Below, one piece after another: positions 15,844-49,656 of a DNA stretch of 64,000 nucleotides. Position 1 is the first letter of the stretch. Each line of letters begins with the position of its first letter. The position numbers and the translations under genes are program-made. The stretch covers positions 2,061-66,060 of the forward strand of contig JAKISP010000001.1 in assembly GCA_021648525.1 (NCBI GenBank). Reading direction: 5' to 3'. The stretch is from Gammaproteobacteria bacterium. Its GTDB lineage: Bacteria; Pseudomonadota; Gammaproteobacteria; SZUA-140. The notes under the pieces were generated by a model. The model was not told the DNA's origin and ran no database searches. It saw only the letters and a list, made by a program, of their open reading frames with translations.

Positions 15844-15990
15844 TTCGTAACTGTTCAGATTGCTTCTGAAATTTGTCAGTTCAAGGCGAAAAATATGAGT
15901 TTACAAGTGTAAATGATCATTTTTCAACACAGAAATGGCAGATTTCAGGAGTGGGCTGAATAGTTACAGTAATTCCTGTTTAATTAAGCG

Positions 15991-22797: not shown

Positions 22798-25700
22798 CTA
22801 GCAAACCTTTATCCTCTTTTTTCGATGCGTGATGAACAGCCCGTACAGGCTTAGCACCACTAACGACCAGAGTGGATGCAAAATCCCACCGCCGCCACCC
22901 GATGCCGCAGTGGTGCTTTCAACCGCAACCGCAACTGCACCAATCTGCGCAGGATCTTTGATTACTCGATTAGCCTGCCCATCCATATCATTCGGACCAC
23001 CGTCCTCAATCGTCAGCTGGACACAATGGTCTCCCGCCGTCAATCCTGCAGTGAATTTTGCACTAGCGGGTAATGGGCAGATACCCGGAAGACCTGGTGC
23101 CGAGGCGATACTATTATCACCATTTTGAACAAAATCAGCCCAGCCACTGACAGGATGATACTTGCGATAGAGCGCACCAATGGGAATCGCTTCCGTCTGG
23201 GGAATCACAATCTTCACAGATTGACCGGCATTGGGCAGGTCAGCAATTTCAAAATCGAAGTAACCACCTGAATTTGGCACCGTATCCGGTGTCGTCACGG
23301 TGCCCGGATTACCCTCTCCACCACCATATGCAGAAATATCACCAGAGGTCACATACGCACCATCAGCACCAGCGGCAAAGGCAACATCGCCCAGACGTAG
23401 AATGAGTCCTGGCTCAGTACGCATAATGTATGTCTCAGTTTGAGCCGAAAAGAGCTGTAATTCATTGCCCGTTAACGTCGAGGCATCCAGATAATCAGCC
23501 AGACCATCGCCATCTGAATCCGTGAACAGCTCTATGTCATCATTAACACCATCGTTATCACTATCGACCGAAGTCAGTACAGGAGCCGCTGAGACCACCT
23601 TTAACAACAGCTCGCTGCTAATCGATATATTAGGCGTACCATTATCAGTTGCCGTCAAACGCACCTTATAGAAGCCGTCAGCCAATCCAGTCGGATCAAA
23701 AATGAAGGTAGTATCATCAGCATCATCAATTTCCACTGCTCGCAGCATCGCATTGCTCGCAATCCAACTATAAGAATGGGTATCCGCCGGGTTAGGATCC
23801 GAGACAACTGCTGTCACCACCACATTACCATCGGTCACAACCACCAGTCGCCTATCCTGCGTTGACTGAACCGCCGAGAGTGCCACATCTGCCGCTTCAT
23901 TCAGCTCAGTCGTTGTCATAGTGTGAGTATCACGCAACCCTTTACGTGCATTGGTCGGATCACCCATTGTAAAGATAATTGTTTCACCAGAATCACCAGC
24001 CCCATCATCAGAAACAGCCACCGTGAGGCTGCCGTTAACACCACTGGCAATCATAATATTACCATCCACCGCATCATGATCATCTGGGTTAGTGGCCGTG
24101 CCAGTCACCGTATAAGGAATAGTCACGGGATAGCTTAATGCTGTTCCACTCAATATGACATCCACCGTAATACTGCCACCTTCACCAATCGTTTGATCAA
24201 TCATAAAGTTGACAAAAGGAGCCACTGGTGCGGTGTCGTCATCGATCAAAATGATCGTTTCACGCGATGGCCTGTCAATGATGTAACCTGTTGAGGGCAT
24301 CAGCGTGATGATAATTGTCTCATCACCTTCCGCCGTTATATCCTGTATCGGCTTAATCGCGACCGTTTGACTATTGCTACCAACAGGAATATCAACTGAA
24401 CCCGATAGCATCTCATAATCACCGCCCGGCCATGCATTACCGCTCGTTGCATAGAAAACTCGCAAACTACTCGTAGTTAAACCAATACGGGTAAAGGTCA
24501 TCAGGCCGGAGGCAGACGCCTCGTTGATAGTCGGATTGGTCGCACTCACATTCACCCGAGGGATACCGCTGTTATCGTTATCACGATTCACCAGCAAAAC
24601 ATCATCCGCATTTATCGCGTTGTAATTAGCATCACCGCTGCTCACGGCTACAGCGGTAACTATGCTGTAATCAACATCACCATCAACACTGTTTCCGTCA
24701 TCGACACCAAATACCGTTACCGTTTTCGGCCCCCAGTCAGCAGAAGTAAAGAGTAGCTGGCTGGGTGTCACCACCCCTTCGTTCACGTTGGTACTCGACA
24801 GGTTAATCGTAACGTCATCATCTGGTTCACTTGTCAGGCGCATCGAAAATGTTACGGATCCGCCCGACTCTGTTGTTACATTCGTCTGTGGCTGTGAAAC
24901 AATAATTGATGCAATGTCATTATCAGCAATCGTCAACGTCGTATCTGCTGGTAATCCAGGCGAGTATCCACTGCCGAGCAGTAACGTAACAATGATGGTC
25001 TCTGCCGCATCAAGTACAGCATCTTCTATAAAAAACACGGGAACCGTAATATAGGTAGAACCGGCAGGTATCACCACTGAGGTACCCAGCCCTGCATAAT
25101 CAACACCCGCGCTCGCCGTGCCACTCACCAGATAATCAACCGTTAGCGGATTAGTGATCTCACCAGAACGTGAGAAGTGCAGCTCTCCAGTATCACCCTC
25201 GGCTGCACTGACTGAGGTGACAGCCACTTCTACGGCAACATCATTGTCTTCGTTGATGACAGAAACATTGTCCGGATCAATACCACTATATGCAGGGTCG
25301 GTTGTCACCACCGTCGCGAGGTCAATGATATAAGGTATACTGCCATCGGAAATAATATCATTTATCCCCGTAATGGTAACCATTTGCGGTGTGCTCCAGT
25401 TATTGATATCAAAACTCAACTGTACGAGATCAACCGTACCTTCTGTGGTTGTCAGGCTGTTAACATCAATCGTTAATGTATCGCTCGGTGCTGCAAAGGG
25501 GGCATCCAGCACCACAGTAAAGGCTGCCGAACCACCCGACTCATTTGTCACGAGACCAACGGTCGGTGTCACTGTCACACCTGGAACCTGAACATTACTC
25601 ATGTAAAGGAATACGGCACCCTCATTTCCGGTAGAGGCACTGCTCTCAATATTGATGCCGGAAGCATAAACATCAGACAGGCCATCGCCATTAATATCGC

Positions 25701-28700
25701 CAACGGTACCGACCGCAGTCCCAAGATAGTCATAACTGCCCCAGACCTCTCGATCCTTATCCGAAAAGACCGGCGTAGTTTGCAGGCTGCCAAGGCCATC
25801 ATTCAGGTAGACATACACACCGCCAGCAGCAGTAAACAAGGTCCTTCCTGGCCCACCGATAATCACATCCAGCCAGCCATCTCCATTAAAGTCACCTGCC
25901 GATGAAATCGAATCAGAACCGTAATTAGCGCTGTTATAAGGGCCGATCACAGACCAGTCGCTCTCTGTGTCTGTACGCACAATCCCATCACCGTTGGCTG
26001 CGGTGACTAGCCCTCCAGAAGCACCCGCTTTAAACAGGAATACAGCGCCTTCATAACTGGTGCTCGTAGCAATACTGTATCGTCCGGCACCAATCAACAG
26101 GTCATTAAAACCATTACCATCAATATCGCCCGCATCCGCAACAGAAGAGCCTAAATAGCCTCGAAATTTATCGCTCTCGACCATCCAGTCCGCATCTGTC
26201 ATATGGGCAATTTTATCGGCATCGGCATCATTAAAACCACTTGCTGAGCCGTAGAAAAGGTAGACACGTCCTTCATCGACACTGCCGTTATCAAAAAGCT
26301 GTGCGCCCATCACCAGGTCTGGATAGGCATCACCATTGACATTTACCGAGGCCATACTGCCCGCTCCCCGACCAGGCTGAGAGAGCGATTGATCACTCTC
26401 AAACGCCCAGTCCCAGGTCGCTTCTTCTATCACATAGATGGTTTTATTGTTGTCTGGATCCAGCCACCCATCGGCCCGATAACCGACAGGCCATAGAGTT
26501 CGATCTGCACCATAAGTCGTCGTCCACTCTACCGCATAATTTTTATACAGAAACACACGTCCTTCGTTTGCGAGATCACCATCAAAATTTGATGCGGCTA
26601 TCACCAGGTCGGTATCACCATCATTATCAAAATCATCAGCAACAACTGAAGAACCAAACAGGCCATTACTATTAGTGCTGTAAAAAAATAGCGCAGCATC
26701 CGCGATTTCCGTAATTCCATCGCCATCCAGGTCTGAAAGACCAGTGGCCGAACCATAATAGATATGCACTCGACCTCGGCCGGCGTTATAACCGACTTCT
26801 CCTACCGCCATATCCTCACAGGCATCACCATTAACATCCCCCAGATTAACCACCGTATTCCCAAAATCACCACCTACCGTGTAAATCCGTTGATCGCTTT
26901 CAGCAGAGAAACCATCTCCTGTGCCGTAATAAACACTAACATCACCTCTAAAAATATAATCACCACCGACCACCATATCCTGGGTGCCATCACAATTGAC
27001 ATCTATCATCTCTACCGCTCGGCCATGCAGTCCATTTGTGACATCAGGATCAAAGGTAATAATATTACGGTTGTTATCCTGATTGGTAACAGTGACATCC
27101 GCTGGATCAACACTGCTGTAGTTACCATCACTCGTAATCAATGTGGTTTGAATGGTGTAATCCTGATTACCATCCGTTGATTTATCATCCAGCCCGGTTA
27201 CCGTCACTGTGGTGCCACCTGCCGAAGGCGCAACATTCGCAGGGAATGTAATTGAGGCGGGAAATACCTTGCCCTCACCAGGATCACTACTGGAGAGATT
27301 GATCACTACATCCGCCGTTGGTTTTGCGCCAAGCTTGATAGTGAACGTGGCGACCCCACCACTTTCAGTGGTGGTCAAACCAGTGGTCGGCGAGACCGTA
27401 ATCGTATAACTTTCATTATCGATATTGGTCATTGCAATATCAGCAGGATCAATGCCGTTATAATCACTATCGTTTGAGACAAAGGCACTACTAATAATGT
27501 TATATGGCACATCGCCATCAACATCAAAATCATTCCTGCCCACAATAGTAACCGATGCACCGGTGTTCCAGTCAGCAGGCTGAATAGTAAAAGTAGTTGG
27601 GCCAAACAGATTACCCGACACAAAGCCTTCACTAAAATCATCTGTCTCCAGCGTAAAGGTCACGGTCGCTGTTGGCATGCTGGTGAGCCGCACAGAAAGC
27701 GGGATAAAACCACCACTTTCATTAGTATCATAACCAAAGAGTGCTACTGTGGTCATACCTGCAACTTCGTTGTCAGTATTGGTCAATGAGACATCGGTAG
27801 GATCATGAGCCGCATAAAGTGAATCAGCACTTGCCGTCACGGTGATATCAATACTGTAAGCGGTCGCCGTGTCGATAATTACATCATCAACCCCGGTCAC
27901 CACCAGTGCTTGCGGCGTTGCCCAGTCAAGCGGCGTAAAAACAAGAGAAGGGATATCGATGATACCTTCCGTGGTATCCGTTGAAACTAGCCCAATAGTG
28001 ACATCAGCGGTCGGTTCAGAATCAAGGCGTACTGTAAAACTGAGGGTGCCTAAAAGCTCTGTTGTACTGACACTATTATTGGGAGTGACGGTCACCCCCG
28101 TCGTATCGTCATCGAGATTAGCCATCGCAATCGATGGGGACAATTTGTCATCGTAATTGCTGTCGCTGCTAATAGCAGCGGCTACTAATATTTGATAGAC
28201 AATATCACCATCATCAACATCATCATTCACACCTGTAATCGTCACTGTTTGTGTGACATTCCAGTTGCCCGTGGTAAACAGAAGCCCTGGAGAGGACAAC
28301 ACACCCTCAGTGAGATCGGTGCTCTGTAGCAGGATGGTGACATTGCTGGCTGGTGCATTGCCTAACACGACATCGAAGGTCGCGGTACCGCCAGCCTCAC
28401 TTGTCGAACTACTCACTGTCGTGACATTCACCACACCGCTTCCTGCAACATTGACGACATTATAGGTCACTGCCACGGTGGCGATGACAGGTGTCGTTTC
28501 CAGGTTCGATACTAGTATGACTTTATACTGCACCCATTGATCGGCAACGGCATCTCTCAGCGCTGGCGGCATGCTTGTGCAACTAATTGCGCCTATACCA
28601 CTACAGCCTCCACTGTGAGTATCTGTCGAGTTCCAGAAGGTTGTCGATGAACCGTCTGGCCCCATCCAGCCTGACCATGCCCCGGGGACACCACCGCTAT

Positions 28701-31635
28701 CTACCGCGGTTTGAATCTGTACCTGAACATCGGTACCCGCCACAGGCAGTGTTTCATTCCAGGACAGAGCACCCAGCAGATTGGTACTATCGATTGTATT
28801 GTAGGGTGAAGAGGTCAACTGCGCCGAATCGACGTAGGTCGTGTAATTAAAGGTAATGTCATTCAAACCAGGTGTTGCATTGACATCTGTCGAAGTCATG
28901 CGAATACGATACTGAGCGTAACGATATGTTGAAAGCAGAGAAATATCACCCGTGTTTAATATGTCCGTCTGCCATGCCGTCCAGGAGCCATCCACCGTCA
29001 GCGCATCACCCGCGCGCACATCAACGGCAAGTGACGTACCGACCGGCAAGTCAGTCGTATAGTTAAGCGTTGAAAAACCAAGGTGCTGACCAAAATCGAT
29101 CACTGAAGATAAATATTCACCCGAAGTAGCATAGGGGCCAAGGTTGAATATCTCCAACCCCCGCGAACCAAGCGTCGCATAGAGCAGGTTTTTATTGGGC
29201 AACGTGCGCAGGATATTATAAGTTGTCCCGGGCTGACTCAACAATAGTTCTGGCGAAGTCGGATTGCTGATATCGAGGACCCTGGCCTGATTGCCACTTG
29301 CTGTATACAGCAGATCACCATTAACCGTAATAGGTGCATAAGAACTCGCTACCAACGAAGAAACAGTGAGCAAGATGGGCGTAGTCGGATCGCTCACATC
29401 ATAAATGTGCAATCCCCCTAGTGTATTCATATAGGCAATATCACCCTTCGCAACGACGAATCCAGGTATCCCGTCAGGGCTGAGAGTATTCACTAACTGA
29501 GGGTCTGTGGGATCTGAAACATCAAAGATCAACATACCATTCGCAGCAGTATTATCGGAAAGATAAACATACCCTTTTATGTAAGAGACATAGAAGGCAG
29601 TTCCAGGGGTATCGTAACTGCCAACCAAAACGGGCGCGGCAGGGTTAGAGACATCAATAATTTCAAGTCCGCCACTCGCAAGAGCACCGAGATAAGCATA
29701 ATTCCCCACCTTCACCACCGAAATAGTCCAGCCTGGTGTTGTCACACCACCCACCGTCACTGGCGAGGTGGGGTTGGTAATATCCACAATACTCAAGCCG
29801 TTCACGGAGGCAACGTAGGCATAGTTACCATCGATATCGACATCGTAAATACGTGAGTTGTTATGAGCGGTGCTCGCGACTAAAAGTGGAGCAGAAGGGT
29901 CTGAAACATCAATAACCCTGAACCGGGAATTAGCATTTCCTGAATCATCCGCGTTATAAAGATACCCATCACGATAAAAAGGCTTTCCGTTCAACCCGTA
30001 AAACACATCATATCGTCCCAGTGAAACTGGAGAAAGCGCAAAACTTAAGCCAATGGAAGCATCTGTGCCATCACCATCAATCTTAATGTTAGTGCCACCC
30101 GCATACTTCAAGTAGCCAATCATCGCATCAAGAAATCCTGGTGTAACAGTGCTATCGGTCGTTGCCAAAGTGATGACATACTGGAAATAACGGCGGTCAC
30201 CCAGGATTGAAACATCAGCGCCACTCGCTACCGATGAGATCGTTATCCAACTGCCATCAAAAATCGGCGTATCACCGGCTCTGACATCGACTGTTATGGC
30301 AGTTCCAGCGGGTGTCGTGTCAACAGTATACTGGAAGGTATTAAAACCATAATGCACCCCTGTATCCATCACCGAGGACTCATACGTCCCCGATGATGGA
30401 TACGTAACCCCACTGCCCAGACTCAGATGGCTAGTACCACTGCTTTGTCCGCCAAGCAGGTCCAGAATCCCATCACTATTGACATCACCCAGTGAAAAGA
30501 CACCTAGAAAACCGACATCGACACCCCCTTCCCATGAAGTATCACGCGCACCCCAGTCAGGTGCGCTCGCGGTACCAATATTGGGATACGCCCAAAAGGT
30601 TCCTGTATTCGTCCCAACAATCAAATCATCTAGACCATCGCCATTCAAATCACCCAGCGCCGGCGCTGAAAAAGAACCAACATCATCCCCGGTCTCCCAT
30701 GTAACCGGCGCACTGGTCGACCAGTCAGGGGACGTAGCACTGCTATTCACAAACGCAAAAATGAAGCCATTCCCAACCCCCGTCACCAGATCAAGGTCAC
30801 CATCATTATCAAGATCTGCTAGTGCGGGCGCTGCAACCGTGTTATTCCCATAATTAATCATGTTCGGGCCATTGAACGCGCTGTTATATTGCCATGCTGG
30901 CGACGATACGGTTCCTATATTTTCAAACCCCATATGTCGCCCATCGTTCACACCCACCAGTAGATCATAATCACCATCGCCATCAAGATCACCCGCCTCA
31001 GGCCGAACATACCCACCAGGAATCGCTGCATAATAGAGGCGCCAGCTTGTTTGAAGCGTCCAGACAGGCGATACCGCCGTGCCTGTGTTTCGATAAGCAT
31101 TAATATAATCATTGCTATATTCGCCGACCATTAAATCCAGCAAACCATCGCCATCCAGATCCACCAACGTGGGCGCAGTATTGGAACCAAGATCGGTGTG
31201 AACATTAAACTGAAGAGCATTCCACGTGGGCGTGGTTCGGGCAAGTGGCGCAATGATAACTCTACCACCCGCTATTTGAGCATCAGCCATATTAGCACCG
31301 GCCATCGAAAAATCAGCCCCCGATGAATGAGACTGAGATTTATCTGCATTTAGTGAAAAATCGCTGTCAGTAGTATGGGTCAGTGAGCGGCTTTCAGTTC
31401 CGAGCTGCAGGTCTGCGCCCGCGTTAACCACTGCCAGCGAGGTATCCTTGTTCGAATAAGTTGTCCAGCTATTTTGATTCCCCGGGTGGATAGCGTTAGT
31501 CGCTGTCGCACCGCCACCCCATGCCCCTTGATTAAAGGTACCGGATGTCGCCGCTGAGACTAAAGGGGGAACAGATAACAACAGGAGTGCAATCGTGACA
31601 ACAACCCTAAGACGAGTTTGGGCGAGGTGCGACAT
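22798..31635 (-). CDS. giant secreted adhesin-like surface protein (~2,945 aa): FG-GAP beta-propellers, LVIVD repeats, tandem Calx-beta-like domains, TSP3-like Ca-binding repeats, GlyGly-CTERM sorting signal
   Basis: A signal peptide (MSHLAQTRLRVVVTIALLLLSVPPLVSAAT) starts from the internal Met at 31635. There are at least two sets of FG-GAP repeats (DLDGDGLLDLMVGE, DLDGDGDYDLLVG, DLNGDGLDDLIVG... and GDVNGDACEDMAVGE, DFDNDGDTDLVIAAS, DIDGNGFNDLLIGA, DFNGDGWLDVIIGG, DINGDGLSDVYASG). LVIVD-type repeats are present (SIVDITNPTSPV, LEIIDVSNPAAP, MLIFDVSDPTDP). At least 10 tandem Calx-beta/cadherin-like modules of about 100 aa have the form ...TFDVVLGNAPASNVTILLQSTD...VTITGVNDD.... D-rich DxDxDG repeats are present (DSDNDGVNDDIELFTDSDGDGLADYLD). 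The C-terminus SGGGGGILHPLWSLVVLSLYGLFITHRKKRIKVC has the GlyGly-CTERM architecture: Gly run, TM helix, basic tail. Confidence 0.9.
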   Translation of the reverse strand: MSHLAQTRLRVVVTIALLLLSVPPLVSAATSGTFNQGAWGGGATATNAIHPGNQNSWTTYSNKDTSLAVVNAGADLQLGTESRSLTHTTDSDFSLNADKSQSHSSGADFSMAGANMADAQIAGGRVIIAPLARTTPTWNALQFNVHTDLGSNTAPTLVDLDGDGLLDLMVGEYSNDYINAYRNTGTAVSPVWTLQTSWRLYYAAIPGGYVRPEAGDLDGDGDYDLLVGVNDGRHMGFENIGTVSSPAWQYNSAFNGPNMINYGNNTVAAPALADLDNDGDLDLVTGVGNGFIFAFVNSSATSPDWSTSAPVTWETGDDVGSFSAPALGDLNGDGLDDLIVGTNTGTFWAYPNIGTASAPDWGARDTSWEGGVDVGFLGVFSLGDVNSDGILDLLGGQSSGTSHLSLGSGVTYPSSGTYESSVMDTGVHYGFNTFQYTVDTTPAGTAITVDVRAGDTPIFDGSWITISSVASGADVSILGDRRYFQYVITLATTDSTVTPGFLDAMIGYLKYAGGTNIKIDGDGTDASIGLSFALSPVSLGRYDVFYGLNGKPFYRDGYLYNADDSGNANSRFRVIDVSDPSAPLLVASTAHNNSRIYDVDIDGNYAYVASVNGLSIVDITNPTSPVTVGGVTTPGWTISVVKVGNYAYLGALASGGLEIIDVSNPAAPVLVGSYDTPGTAFYVSYIKGYVYLSDNTAANGMLIFDVSDPTDPQLVNTLSPDGIPGFVVAKGDIAYMNTLGGLHIYDVSDPTTPILLTVSSLVASSYAPITVNGDLLYTASGNQARVLDISNPTSPELLLSQPGTTYNILRTLPNKNLLYATLGSRGLEIFNLGPYATSGEYLSSVIDFGQHLGFSTLNYTTDLPVGTSLAVDVRAGDALTVDGSWTAWQTDILNTGDISLLSTYRYAQYRIRMTSTDVNATPGLNDITFNYTTYVDSAQLTSSPYNTIDSTNLLGALSWNETLPVAGTDVQVQIQTAVDSGGVPGAWSGWMGPDGSSTTFWNSTDTHSGGCSGIGAISCTSMPPALRDAVADQWVQYKVILVSNLETTPVIATVAVTYNVVNVAGSGVVNVTTVSSSTSEAGGTATFDVVLGNAPASNVTILLQSTDLTEGVLSSPGLLFTTGNWNVTQTVTITGVNDDVDDGDIVYQILVAAAISSDSNYDDKLSPSIAMANLDDDTTGVTVTPNNSVSTTELLGTLSFTVRLDSEPTADVTIGLVSTDTTEGIIDIPSLVFTPLDWATPQALVVTGVDDVIIDTATAYSIDITVTASADSLYAAHDPTDVSLTNTDNEVAGMTTVALFGYDTNESGGFIPLSVRLTSMPTATVTFTLETDDFSEGFVSGNLFGPTTFTIQPADWNTGASVTIVGRNDFDVDGDVPYNIISSAFVSNDSDYNGIDPADIAMTNIDNESYTITVSPTTGLTTTESGGVATFTIKLGAKPTADVVINLSSSDPGEGKVFPASITFPANVAPSAGGTTVTVTGLDDKSTDGNQDYTIQTTLITSDGNYSSVDPADVTVTNQDNNRNIITFDPDVTNGLHGRAVEMIDVNCDGTQDMVVGGDYIFRGDVSVYYGTGDGFSAESDQRIYTVGGDFGNTVVNLGDVNGDACEDMAVGEVGYNAGRGRVHIYYGSATGLSDLDGDGITEIADAALFFYSTNSNGLFGSSVVADDFDNDGDTDLVIAASNFDGDLANEGRVFLYKNYAVEWTTTYGADRTLWPVGYRADGWLDPDNNKTIYVIEEATWDWAFESDQSLSQPGRGAGSMASVNVNGDAYPDLVMGAQLFDNGSVDEGRVYLFYGSASGFNDADADKIAHMTDADWMVESDKFRGYLGSSVADAGDIDGNGFNDLLIGAGRYSIATSTSYEGAVFLFKAGASGGLVTAANGDGIVRTDTESDWSVIGPYNSANYGSDSISSAGDFNGDGWLDVIIGGPGRTLFTAAGGVYVYLNDGLGSLQTTPVFSDKDREVWGSYDYLGTAVGTVGDINGDGLSDVYASGINIESSASTGNEGAVFLYMSNVQVPGVTVTPTVGLVTNESGGSAAFTVVLDAPFAAPSDTLTIDVNSLTTTEGTVDLVQLSFDINNWSTPQMVTITGINDIISDGSIPYIIDLATVVTTDPAYSGIDPDNVSVINEDNDVAVEVAVTSVSAAEGDTGELHFSRSGEITNPLTVDYLVSGTASAGVDYAGLGTSVVIPAGSTYITVPVFFIEDAVLDAAETIIVTLLLGSGYSPGLPADTTLTIADNDIASIIVSQPQTNVTTESGGSVTFSMRLTSEPDDDVTINLSSTNVNEGVVTPSQLLFTSADWGPKTVTVFGVDDGNSVDGDVDYSIVTAVAVSSGDANYNAINADDVLLVNRDNDNSGIPRVNVSATNPTINEASASGLMTFTRIGLTTSSLRVFYATSGNAWPGGDYEMLSGSVDIPVGSNSQTVAIKPIQDITAEGDETIIITLMPSTGYIIDRPSRETIILIDDDTAPVAPFVNFMIDQTIGEGGSITVDVILSGTALSYPVTIPYTVTGTATNPDDHDAVDGNIMIASGVNGSLTVAVSDDGAGDSGETIIFTMGDPTNARKGLRDTHTMTTTELNEAADVALSAVQSTQDRRLVVVTDGNVVVTAVVSDPNPADTHSYSWIASNAMLRAVEIDDADDTTFIFDPTGLADGFYKVRLTATDNGTPNISISSELLLKVVSAAPVLTSVDSDNDGVNDDIELFTDSDGDGLADYLDASTLTGNELQLFSAQTETYIMRTEPGLILRLGDVAFAAGADGAYVTSGDISAYGGGEGNPGTVTTPDTVPNSGGYFDFEIADLPNAGQSVKIVIPQTEAIPIGALYRKYHPVSGWADFVQNGDNSIASAPGLPGICPLPASAKFTAGLTAGDHCVQLTIEDGGPNDMDGQANRVIKDPAQIGAVAVAVESTTAASGGGGGILHPLWSLVVLSLYGLFITHRKKRIKVC

Positions 31636-32222
31636 CAAATAACATACATCATTATAGCCAGCTCTGACTTGATACATCGACCGCCTACCCCTTTTCAAAA
31701 TATCGAATGAAGTTTCTATCTACCATTCCAGGCACTCTATCGTGCTTTTTTCTAGCCATCCATATAACAACAGAAGGCGATATGGCATGAAGACCCATTA
31801 AAATATATCCATATATTTTGATTTTCTGCTCAGATTTTTGTGCGTAGCAAAACCTGAGCTTTAGCGCTATTACCCATGGTTATCGGCCAATCAAAACTAC
31901 TTTGCAAGCATTATCCTACGCTAGAAGCTCAATAATAGCCGCGCCAGGCCTTAAACCTCCTTCTAAAATCAACATTTAACCAATGAATACAATCAGGTAA
32001 CAATATTCCGCATCCTAAAAGCAAAAAAGTAGGTAAAACGGCTAAAAATCACCAATTGTGATAAAGCATACCGGTTGAAAAGGGGAATATTCTACATTGT
32101 GAACCGCAAGGTTAATCATGAGCCTTCGCCAAAAGACTTTTCTGAAATATTAAGGTCAGAATAATACATAAAAAATGTAAAATTATTATAAATCAAAGCA
32201 TTGTATTGTATTGTATTTCAAA

Positions 32223-47603: not shown

Positions 47604-47777
47604 AACTATTCCTTAAACGCATATCGCCAGCATCACCAGCGGCAAAAAGTAGAGCGGTGAGGAACGAGGAGGTTCCCTACGTAAAATGTGCCAACAAGGA
47701 CTTAGTTGTTATGCTTGAATAAGTAATCATACTTGCAGTTTGCATACGTGTCTGGCACCAGGTATCAACAATGAAAA

Positions 47778-48461
47778 TCAATCTATACTATTGAGTCTCC
47801 AGCCTATTTCTACCGGCCTGCCCTTATCTGGCCTGCTCAGTATTAGCAAATCTACATGCTTGCCATGAGCATTTCGAGCGTACCATTCAGATTGAATAAG
47901 TAAGTCTTCAAATCCATCGCTAGTGAAATCACCACGTGCCAGCAGCGTTAAATAGACCTCATCCGCCTTTGTAAGTAATTTGAAGATATTTTCTTTCTCA
48001 AGCGTAATTTGAATGCTGGCGTCATAAAATTTAATTGACAGATCTTGCCTTTTGATAGTATCAGCTTTGCTCAATAGCGGCGTTATAGCGGCTGGTAACT
48101 GGTAGATGAAATTTGTGTTCAGTTTGGACGGGAAGTTATTTGTGTGTGCAGTACTAGCTGTAGAATATTTATCTATAGCTTTACACGATACCAGAAGAAG
48201 CTTAAAACGGAAGTAGTCGTAGTCGACTATTTTTGAAATATCGATACCATTAGCCTGTTTGCAGCTAGTAATGACAAGCTTTCCACCTTCTATTGACTGG
48301 TATTCGTAGTTGGATAGAGCAGGCTGACTAATATCCAACTGGCTTACAAAGCTAAATCCAGGAAATTGTTCCTGGTATAGTTTTGCATCAATCATAGTAC
48401 TGCTAGTTGAGCATGCCTGAAGAAAAGCAAAGGACAGAAAAATAATGAATAATTTTCTCAT
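47778..48461 (-). CDS. lipoprotein (candidate immunity/partner protein of the adjacent lysozyme)
   Basis: The lipobox is MRKLFIIFLSFAFLQAC. It starts 5 nt after the lysozyme stop. I recognised no family. Confidence 0.55.
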   Translation of the reverse strand: MRKLFIIFLSFAFLQACSTSSTMIDAKLYQEQFPGFSFVSQLDISQPALSNYEYQSIEGGKLVITSCKQANGIDISKIVDYDYFRFKLLLVSCKAIDKYSTASTAHTNNFPSKLNTNFIYQLPAAITPLLSKADTIKRQDLSIKFYDASIQITLEKENIFKLLTKADEVYLTLLARGDFTSDGFEDLLIQSEWYARNAHGKHVDLLILSRPDKGRPVEIGWRLNSID

Positions 48462-48466
48462 CGTGT

Positions 48467-49096
48467 TTAGGGCGTAGAAGGAGTTGGTTTGGCTGCAACA
48501 GGTATGGTATTGAGCAATTGTTTAACATACTGGTTTCGTGCAGTATTAACATCGGGGCGGTTGGACTCAGTAGCCGCTTTTTTCCAATCACCCGCTTTTA
48601 AAGCTTTATTGAAGCTGGGAAAGCTACCAGTAATCTTCGTAGCACCAAGGTTGAATATCATATCGAACAGCGCTAACTGTACGTTTTTGTGCAGTTTGTC
48701 GAAGTCATCAGGGTAGCCATTAGATTTTTTATAAATGTTAGTTAGCTCAGTGTAAAAGCTATTAATGTGTTTATCCCTTTGTGTATTAATGTCACTGTCT
48801 TTCATAACTAGCGTGGTATGAGACTTGAAACTACTTGCACCATATCGCTGGCCATAGGGTAGTTTGGAGATTTTATCGTATTCAGCCTGCTTCTCAGTAA
48901 GATTTGCCAGTAGAAAGGGAAACTTGTTTTTTAATTTATATAGCGCAACAGTCGCTATAGCATTCCGGTTGGGTATGAGATGACCTATACCAATGGTAAC
49001 TTTGCCTTTGGTATCCAGATAAAGATGACTAAAACGCCCTTCATATTGCTCAATTTTCTTCACAAGCTCCGATTTAATATTGACAGCTAGTGACAT
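48467..49096 (-). CDS. T4-type (GH24) lysozyme / muramidase
   Basis: The catalytic-triad spacing is identical to T4 lysozyme E11-D20-T26: IEQYEGRFSHLYLDTKGKVTIGIGH has E, then D at +9, then T at +6. The C-terminal lobe FNLGATKITGSFPSFNKALKAGDWKKAA matches [27 protein letters not shown]. An AGAGGGGG Shine-Dalgarno lies 5 nt before the chosen Met at 49096. Confidence 0.75.
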   Translation of the reverse strand: MSLAVNIKSELVKKIEQYEGRFSHLYLDTKGKVTIGIGHLIPNRNAIATVALYKLKNKFPFLLANLTEKQAEYDKISKLPYGQRYGASSFKSHTTLVMKDSDINTQRDKHINSFYTELTNIYKKSNGYPDDFDKLHKNVQLALFDMIFNLGATKITGSFPSFNKALKAGDWKKAATESNRPDVNTARNQYVKQLLNTIPVAAKPTPSTP

Positions 49097-49586
49097 AAAT
49101 ACCCCCTCTAAAAAAATTATCATGTGTATATTAACTGATCTTAACTTCTAAGGACACCATGGATGTGACTGTAAGTTTGTAGATGATTGGTGGGGACGCA
49201 CGGTGCTCTGTACTATGCCTTTGCTCCTGGTCATCCTGGCCGACTCATTACCCAGGGGCGCACCGTGGAAAACAATTCACATCCTAATAAACCTTGCTGA
49301 TCACATACCAACAATACCTGTTCGAAAACAGATTTGATATCCTCTAGCTTACTGCTAATGAATTGGAGTACGCAAAAAGAATGACTTTTAATATCCTAAG
49401 GTCATAAGCAGGACGACCATTAAAATCGTTTTTATAACGTGGATAAAAAACACTCAGATCAAGGTTATTTTCACATGAATATCAAAATAAGAATATTTAA
49501 CGTGCCTGAGCGTAATTGATCTTCCAGGCTCAAGGCCAACAATAGGTCTTGACAGTAGTTCGTGCGCATTTATTGCTTTTGTCAGG

Positions 49587-49621
49587 AAAATTAAAAAATC
49601 CCGCAACAAGAGTTTACGGGG
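49587..49621 (-). terminator. intrinsic terminator after island hypothetical gene
   Basis: On the minus strand there is a CCCCGTAA-ACTCTTG-TTGCGGG hairpin followed by ATTTTTTAATTTT. Confidence 0.45.
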
Positions 49622-49656
49622 TCTAAGTTAATAAACTGTAAAAAAGCTATCAAGGA

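Follow-up and report, generated by a model that had tools for sequence, protein, structure and literature searches.

Two adjacent minus-strand genes are the subject of this study. They lie in a stretch of 64,000 nucleotides (64 kb; positions 2,061 to 66,060 of contig JAKISP010000001.1, assembly GCA_021648525.1) from a gammaproteobacterium of the GTDB lineage SZUA-140; this whole stretch is referred to below as the window. The first gene encodes a T4-type lysozyme and the second a predicted lipoprotein, which we call the partner. Judging from the sequences and from the genomic contexts of homologous pairs, we consider it probable that the two genes encode a stand-alone muramidase effector of a type VI secretion system (T6SS) and its periplasmic immunity protein. 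The enzyme class and the logic of such a unit are familiar, and the immunity family is what is new. The partner is best read as a candidate immunity protein of a new family, with a predicted fold that has no match in the PDB. No description of the free-standing lysozyme family or of its partner was found in the literature searched.

The lysozyme and its lipoprotein partner

The lysozyme consists of 209 amino acids and matches the Pfam family Phage_lysozyme (PF00959) with 33.5 bits against a cut-off of 22.3, which places it by sequence in glycoside hydrolase family 24 (GH24); the PHROG_7 endolysin family matches at 4e-11. In phmmer and BLASTP alignments, residues E19, D28 and T34 correspond to the catalytic E11, D20 and T26 of T4 lysozyme, and the comparison of the lysozyme family profile with T4 lysozyme by hhalign gave a probability of 96%. 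Among 77 homologues, E19 and T34 are invariant and D28 is conserved in at least 90%. The AlphaFold (AF2) model, with a predicted local distance difference test score (pLDDT) of 92, has the two-lobed fold of T4 lysozyme. All of its top 50 Foldseek matches in the PDB are T4 lysozyme entries or T4-lysozyme fusion constructs, and the template modelling (TM) score against stand-alone T4 lysozyme, normalised to the target, is about 0.70. Identity to T4 lysozyme is 23%. Two family-specific insertions at residues ~45-63 (a beta-hairpin) and ~79-91 together account for about 32 residues, and the C-terminal tail is variable, disordered and rich in Pro, Ala and Lys. The Pfam Pesticin family gives a weak match of 18.7 bits, which is under the gathering threshold. 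These features predict muramidase activity for the protein.

The N-terminus of the lysozyme (MSLAVNIKSELVKK) has no hydrophobic segment, and such a segment is absent from all 24 aligned lysozymes, so neither a Sec signal peptide nor a signal-arrest-release (SAR) anchor is expected. The first-pass annotation of this DNA, made from the sequence alone, had described a signal-less T4-type lysozyme of this length with catalytic Glu, Asp and Thr, and the profile match, the T4 lysozyme alignment and the structural comparison all agree with it. Its spacing formula, E-(9)-D-(6)-T, names the right catalytic residues, but the figures are offsets and not numbers of intervening residues. It gave no strand for the two genes.

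The partner gene has the same orientation as the lysozyme gene, from which it is separated by a gap of 5 nt, and encodes 227 amino acids. The N-terminus of the partner (MRKLFIIFLSFAFLQAC, followed by S) constitutes a signal peptide with the lipobox LQAC and Cys17. The same open reading frame (ORF), with its lipobox and without a family assignment, had been reported at first pass, and our searches of Pfam, NCBIfam, PHROGs and PADLOC likewise returned no match for the partner. Comparison with the PDB by sequence and by profile gave 0 matches at E values up to 10. The structure of the partner is predicted with confidence as a folded alpha/beta domain with no C-terminal membrane anchor. Foldseek had been proposed as a check on both proteins: it returned T4 lysozyme as the top match of the enzyme, and for the partner model nothing in the PDB at E < 1 (best E = 1.1).

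Two cysteines, C67 and C93, are invariant in the partner family, which fits a periplasmic disulfide. Residues 177-188 (GDFxxDGxEDLL) resemble one FG-GAP repeat, and for this reason FG-GAP proteins turn up as weak multi-hit matches. Among the partners from genome loci, 63 of 66 have a signal peptide and at least 44 of 66 have a lipobox; a few homologues are plainly soluble periplasmic proteins rather than lipoproteins. In the deposited annotation the window partner is a protein of 205 amino acids that begins with MIDAKL (P0121; identifiers in P and L are our handles for proteins and loci). This start lies 22 codons too late, so that the signal peptide and the lipobox are lost and the periplasmic location is hidden. 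The finding thus bears on annotation as well, given that the public records label both genes of the pair 'hypothetical protein' and mis-call the start codon of the partner.

We compared the partner with described lysozyme inhibitors and immunity proteins. No similarity to Ivy, MliC/PliC, PliG, PliI, LprI, Tsi3, Tgi2, TsiV3 or Spackle was detected by Pfam, NCBIfam, PDB profile or Foldseek searches. The sole link to described inhibitor families, and an indirect one, is P0245 (515 amino acids), which fuses a lysozyme-inhibitor LprI domain (PF07007, 4e-10) to a partner domain. P0245 was considered as a lysozyme-linked gene and rejected, the gene upstream of the fusion not being a lysozyme. A fragment of LprI also adjoins the pair in L131. 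LprI-domain proteins have been proposed as immunity proteins of lysozyme-like T6SS effectors in the hcp islands of Pantoea (PMC9796082). Three tandem partner domains occur in the single secreted proteins P0261 and P0269 (759-781 amino acids), and such fusions and tandems, including P0245, may be multi-specific immunity proteins. At E up to 1e-10, the profile search of the full library of 1.84 billion proteins retrieved no more than 148 representatives of the partner, and thus the family is rare.

A mobile two-gene module and its association with type VI secretion

Protein searches recovered 275 lysozyme relatives and 39-60 partner relatives. The analysis of genomic context covered 82 non-redundant loci, 80 of them obtained by scanning one genome per GTDB species and the others being the window and Vibrio vulnificus. 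A partner homologue lies immediately 3' of the lysozyme gene in 68 loci, and two more are truncated at contig ends, where the status of the partner is cut off. The paired loci span Gamma-, Beta- and Alphaproteobacteria as well as Desulfobacterota, and in homologous loci the two genes often overlap by 4 nt. When 1,366 flanking ORFs were clustered all against all, only the lysozyme and partner families recurred across lineages; in annotated contexts, the pair is located between unrelated housekeeping, defence or toxin-antitoxin genes.

The nearest relative of the window pair (L009) shares 83% nucleotide identity with it, and the similarity covers exactly positions 47732-49176 of the window, with unrelated flanks. 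Nucleotide matches to L008, L010 and L001 are likewise confined to the pair. On one side the similarity extends about 80 bp beyond the lysozyme ATG and on the other about 46 bp beyond the partner stop codon, which delimits a unit of 1.44 kb. From these comparisons we conclude that the pair is a conserved, self-contained module that moves between genomes as a unit of about 1.4 kb. In the window, it is situated in the AT-rich island already recognized at first pass, with a GC content of 0.36-0.43 across 44-51 kb versus ~0.48 in the remainder. Identities within the family range from 36 to 90% for the lysozyme and from 25 to 86% for the partner, and on these values the partner evolves faster than the enzyme.

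In V. vulnificus (L001:5650-9905) and Photobacterium kagoshimensis (L010:3750-13015), the pair is found inside chromosomal integron cassette arrays, interleaved with cassette genes for a lipocalin, ParE, an OLD-family nuclease and an acetyltransferase. Repeats resembling attC, ~110-135 bp long, with TAACAAA at the start and GGCGTTA at the end, immediately precede the pair, which in P. kagoshimensis is flanked by attC copies on both sides. The pair is a probable integron cassette in these Vibrionaceae, although its status falls short of proof because no clear attC was found directly after the partner gene. An integron-borne effector-immunity-like pair is of interest in itself, and the copies in cassette arrays suggest that integrons may help to move effector-immunity modules; a 2017 study of Vibrio cholerae reported no evidence for such movement (PMC5361080).

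Genes of the T6SS were sought in all fetched loci with query proteins from the annotated cluster of Pseudoalteromonas sp. THAF3. A co-oriented hcp gene precedes the pair by 40-75 nt in L013 (Desulfosarcinaceae), L067 (Thioalkalispiraceae) and L069/L071 (deep-sea Gammaproteobacteria), and Pfam T6SS_HCP confirms these orphan hcp genes with E values from 1e-27 to 2e-30. In L071, the trio of hcp, lysozyme and partner genes is inserted within the ribD-ribE operon. The L013 lysozyme is 60% identical to that of the window and belongs to the sister group of the window's clade in a neighbour-joining tree, in which T6SS-linked members are present in both major clades.

Other homologous pairs stand beside larger T6SS loci. 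The THAF3 cluster has the order tagH-tssJKLM-tagF-tssABC-tagJ-tssEFGH-hcp-vgrG, followed by genes for a lipase-like effector, PAAR, Rhs and an SMI1 immunity protein and then by the pair. The Rhs context is common to L074, L076 and L078, and the lysozymes of THAF3-type Rhs-linked loci have an N-terminal PG_binding_1 domain. In Vibrio sp. WXL210 (L060:7218-13814), a Tox-PAAR-like gene (PF13665, 1e-27) is followed by a gene for a 620-amino-acid protein with a C-terminal lysozyme, and then by the partner. Further downstream are a paralogue, which shares the N-terminal region but ends in an M23 peptidase, and two genes for signal-peptide proteins. By its gene order, this locus is a typical polymorphic-effector array. 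The region shared by its ~620-amino-acid paralogues is an unannotated N-terminal part of ~430 residues with the motif WHGGMHITDKSAPWVK, which may be an undescribed delivery domain. A 'lysozyme-like' protein encoded beside a PAAR-like gene has been reported in the T6SS1 secretome of Vibrio coralliilyticus (PMC11371242) and is a possible member of the present lysozyme family.

Proposed mechanism and alternative explanations

If the pair is a T6SS effector and its immunity protein, the lysozyme would be synthesised without an export signal in the cytoplasm, a compartment that offers it no substrate, and would be loaded as small cargo on the tube or spike of the T6SS, with the inside of the Hcp ring as the most likely place. 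Hcp delivers small cargo, such as the Tse proteins. Loading in the Hcp lumen would be the simplest reading because of the hcp-linked operons and the small size of the enzyme (209 amino acids). A working T6SS in the source organism, which the scheme presupposes, would then fire the lysozyme into adjacent Gram-negative cells, in whose periplasm it would, like T4 lysozyme, cleave the glycan strands of peptidoglycan. The partner would be exported by Sec and, in the window copy, lipidated. Residing in the periplasm of the producer, it would bind the lysozyme delivered by sister cells and block it, presumably through direct contact.

An effector/immunity pair had been proposed at first pass, and the conservation of the autonomous pair together with the T6SS linkage of its homologues supports that interpretation. 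The arrangement found is that of a signal-less candidate effector with a compartment-targeted candidate immunity protein. Several observations weigh on the other side. Only ~8 of the 82 loci are physically linked to T6SS genes, whereas ~90% have no T6SS gene within 10 kb and are physically orphan. The search with the THAF3 proteins found no T6SS gene in the window, so that genetic linkage exists for homologues and not for the window copy; the word 'orphan', which the first-pass annotation applied to the lysozyme, suits the window locus but not the family. The T6SS marker domains MIX, FIX, RIX and PAAR are absent from the lysozyme. Finally, the lysozyme has no detectable partner in 12 of the 82 loci, including three Kangiella metagenome-assembled genomes (MAGs) and the V. 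coralliilyticus clade, which would be unexpected if the enzyme were routinely fired at kin.

The scarcity of T6SS genes near the pair would be accommodated by a unit that works independently of secretion, in which the lysozyme is released only on lysis of the producer or by some other route and the periplasmic partner is an inhibitor that protects survivors. By analogy with Spackle of phage T4, the partner of such a unit might also act on the T4-type tail lysozymes of incoming phages and block them, and the pair would then serve for defence or as a 'booby-trap'. Several contexts agree with this view: the Vibrionaceae cassette arrays and the defence or toxin-antitoxin islands with an OLD-family nuclease and ParE in V. 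vulnificus, reverse transcriptases in Sessilibacter, and SIR2/HerA in L131. Spackle complexed with a T4-type lysozyme (6xc0) is also among the structural neighbours of the lysozyme model. We regard this explanation as unlikely, however. It leaves the strict pairing with a signal-less lysozyme without a reason and does not account for the linkage of homologous pairs to hcp, PAAR-like and Rhs genes, the enzyme lacks domains for receptor binding or translocation through which released protein could re-enter Gram-negative cells, and PADLOC found no anti-phage defence system at the pair.

Comparably little credence goes to an autonomous pair whose lysozyme is freed only when the envelope is breached by phage holins, lysis or attack, and whose partner is a general inhibitor of T4-type lysozymes. 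Such a pair would explain the spread in integron cassettes and the lineages in which T6SS linkage is never seen. Among bacterial proteins, the partner would then be the first inhibitor dedicated to GH24 'v-type' lysozymes, and its role would be to protect kin or to block the tail lysozymes of phages; no bacterial inhibitor family dedicated to GH24 (T4-type) lysozymes is contained in the Pfam and PDB sets searched.

A further explanation, which we also hold to be rather improbable, is that the pair descends from an effector-immunity unit of which only the immunity gene now matters here, the lysozyme being unexpressed or unused in a genome that lacks a compatible T6SS. Orphan immunity genes are common in T6SS biology (PMC9796082, PMC5361080), and the AT-rich surroundings of the locus are in line with a relic, as would be the possible degraded transposase in the 530 bp upstream. 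Against this, the lysozyme ORF is intact and has lost none of its catalytic residues, its ribosome-binding site is strong, and the region upstream of it is conserved. The lysozyme is, moreover, better conserved than the partner, which argues for selection on the enzyme.

There is very little to recommend a housekeeping or conditional enzyme of cell-wall remodelling with a regulatory lipoprotein, for instance for the insertion of an envelope-spanning machine. Lysozyme-like enzymes do serve the assembly of type III, type IV and type VI secretion systems and of flagella, as TagX does for the T6SS (PMC5061870), but such enzymes have export signals or membrane anchors, and the window lysozyme has neither. 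The pair is, in addition, patchy in distribution, varies between strains and moves horizontally; its flanks differ from lineage to lineage without any relationship, and no conserved machine genes are nearby.

The first-pass annotation had named a cryptic lysis cassette as an alternative and had stated that its effector/immunity claim would fail if homologues of the pair occurred only in intact prophages beside holins and spanins, which is not the case. The partner had no match in a tblastn search of 50,697 phage genomes, in which the best matches of the lysozyme were T4-like gp5 and gp e, with 26-29% identity and each with less than 80% of the query covered. The IMG/VR relatives of the lysozyme reach no more than 33% identity, and the best of them are ordinary endolysins, 140-175 amino acids in length, that lack the family insertions; none of the 37 IMG/VR loci, all of them retrieved by way of the lysozyme gene, has a partner gene near it. 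Neither collection contains the lysozyme family itself. Genes for holins, spanins or phage structural proteins were seen neither in more than 80 related contexts nor in the 64-kb window; the first-pass annotation had likewise noted none nearby. The candidates of a prophage remnant and a lysis cassette were rejected on the phage-genome and IMG/VR searches, which indicate that the pair is not phage-derived. An endolysin with a spanin-like lipoprotein from a decayed prophage is therefore the least credible explanation of all and highly improbable: the T4 endolysin fold and a gene order that recalls endolysin followed by o-spanin speak for it, but the 227-amino-acid partner, a folded alpha/beta domain with no C-terminal membrane anchor, is unlike an o-spanin or u-spanin.

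Relation to described systems and further features of the loci

The closest described parallels to the proposed effector and immunity protein are VgrG3cp/TsiV3cp of V. cholerae, a T4/pesticin-like muramidase proven as a T6SS toxin with periplasmic immunity (PMC9927483), and TssI2/TsiI2 of Vibrio fluvialis, whose muramidase is of the same type and is likewise a proven T6SS toxin (PMC9620997). As in these systems, a muramidase domain suited to the target periplasm is combined with a gene for a Sec-exported immunity protein directly downstream, in a mobile module of low GC content. A distant subfamily of the present lysozymes also has PG_binding_1 before the lysozyme domain, as VgrG3cp does. Unlike VgrG3cp and TssI2, which are specialised effectors in the form of C-terminal VgrG extensions, the window lysozyme is free-standing and of cargo type, and unlike TsiI2, which has 127 amino acids, the partner is a 227-amino-acid lipoprotein with no relatives detectable in Pfam or the PDB. 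TsiI2 was accordingly ruled out as a relative of the partner, by its size and by the lack of a match.

Free-standing glycoside-hydrolase effectors with periplasmic immunity proteins are represented by Tge1-3/Tgi1-3, according to Whitney et al. 2013 as cited in PMC4832377, and Tge2 has been described as an N-acetylglucosaminidase (PMC10469887). The present pair resembles Tse3/Tsi3 (Tge1/Tgi1) of Pseudomonas aeruginosa and Tge2/Tge3 in forming stand-alone two-gene units dispersed over the chromosome, in which a signal-less peptidoglycan hydrolase is followed by a periplasmic immunity protein. It differs from them in that their enzymes belong to other folds or families and in that the partner is unmatched to Tsi3, Tgi2 and TsiV3 in the PDB set. 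Membership in Tge2/Tgi2 was rejected, since Tge2 is a glucosaminidase by description and neither Tgi2 nor Tsi3 is among the PDB matches.

An antibacterial muramidase with the T4 lysozyme fold and a periplasmic immunity protein is also known from pesticin/Pim of Yersinia pestis; pesticin is taken up via FyuA/TonB by means of N-terminal domains for receptor binding and translocation, whereas the window lysozyme has no such domains. With the T4 endolysin (gp e) and the gp5 tail lysozyme, the enzyme has in common the fold and the geometry of the catalytic Glu, Asp and Thr. It is set apart from T4 endolysin by its low identity, its two insertions and the absence of its family from phage and viral collections. 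Spackle of T4 is, like the proposed partner, a periplasmic inhibitor of a T4-type lysozyme, yet the two are unrelated.

If confirmed, the proposed T6SS pair would define a widespread free-standing family of T4-lysozyme-type effectors in marine, sediment and symbiont bacteria. It would also add an immunity protein with a confidently predicted structure for which Foldseek found no counterpart in the PDB, and the complex of the lysozyme with its partner would show a new way to block one of the best-studied enzymes.

The features of the locus in the window are collected in Table 1. An alternative in-frame ATG at 49123 would extend the lysozyme to 218 amino acids. The start at 49096 is favoured because of the ribosome-binding site, the aligned N-termini of homologues (in which M1 is invariant) and a -10-like hexamer that overlaps 49123. 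The promoter-like site falls within the block conserved with L009, and the evidence for it is weak because such sites are no more numerous in the region than in shuffled sequences.

Table 1. Features of the lysozyme-partner locus in window coordinates
Feature	Position	Strand	Basis or details
Mobile two-gene module (promoter region, lysozyme and lipoprotein genes)	47732..49176	minus	Nucleotide similarity to L009
Promoter-like site TTAAGA-17 nt-GATAAT	49116..49144	minus	Consensus scan, 9/12 matches; just 5' of the lysozyme gene
Ribosome-binding site GAGGGGG, 5 nt before the ATG at 49096	49102..49108	minus	Sequence read directly
T4-type (GH24-like) lysozyme, 209 amino acids	48467..49096	minus	E19 at 49040-49042, D28 at 49013-49015, T34 at 48995-48997
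Partner, predicted periplasm-facing lipoprotein and candidate immunity protein, 227 amino acids	47778..48461	minus	Lipobox Cys17 at 48411-48413

The flanking genes of the window are ordinary and encode PilZ-like, O6-methylguanine methyltransferase, PEP-mutase-family, NUDIX hydrolase, tautomerase, cytochrome b561, PepSY and two-component system proteins. Scans of the window for Rfam families and tRNAs gave no matches, and the search for terminal repeats or attC-like sites around the module returned only short matches at chance level. On the minus strand at 49124-49656, short reading frames with the peptides NGRPAYDLRILKVILFAYSN and FEQVLLVCDQQGLLG resemble pieces of an IS1182/IS5-type transposase, perhaps from a decayed insertion sequence beside the module. 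A transposase remnant in this 530-bp non-coding stretch gained no support and is at most a tentative reading, the peptides having no Pfam match and the blastn search against plasmids being empty.

Additional observations concern related lysozymes outside the window. In Kangiella, the lysozyme stands alone in L045, L048 and L049 and is accompanied by the partner in L044 and L047, at the same syntenic position, so that this genus provides a natural experiment on tolerance of the enzyme in the partner's absence. In L133, ~5.5 kb from the pair (L133:16116-17620), a 305-amino-acid protein with PG_binding_1 and Glyco_hydro_19 domains is followed by an unmatched protein of 195 amino acids, a candidate for another effector-immunity-like couple. 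More than 60 small plasmids encode a protein of 253-260 amino acids with a T4/pesticin-like lysozyme domain, which is 28-30% identical to the window enzyme, and an N-terminal extension of ~80 residues. These are ColE1-type plasmids of 4-7 kb from Enterobacter, Klebsiella, Salmonella, Escherichia and Shigella (lysozyme loci L125:1149-2557 and L126:1381-2835), mostly mobilisable or non-mobilisable. The plasmid lysozyme gene has a convergent neighbour encoding 199-209 amino acids without a family match, both are annotated as hypothetical, and entry-exclusion genes are nearby. By analogy, this layout resembles that of a colicin-type bacteriocin with its immunity gene.

Elsewhere in the window, at 15847-15967, there is a near-perfect intergenic hairpin of 120 nt with a predicted RNA folding energy of -51.7 kcal/mol (z = -8.5). 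It is 94% identical to L008:9083-9212 from a Thiotrichaceae MAG, where it lies ~800 bp upstream of the lysozyme pair. The hairpin is not a tRNA and has no match in Rfam; it may represent a large terminator or a mobile element of palindromic structure. A giant ORF of 2,966 codons on the minus strand (22798-31698), with FG-GAP, LVIVD and Calx-beta repeats, probably encodes a large surface or adhesin-like protein.

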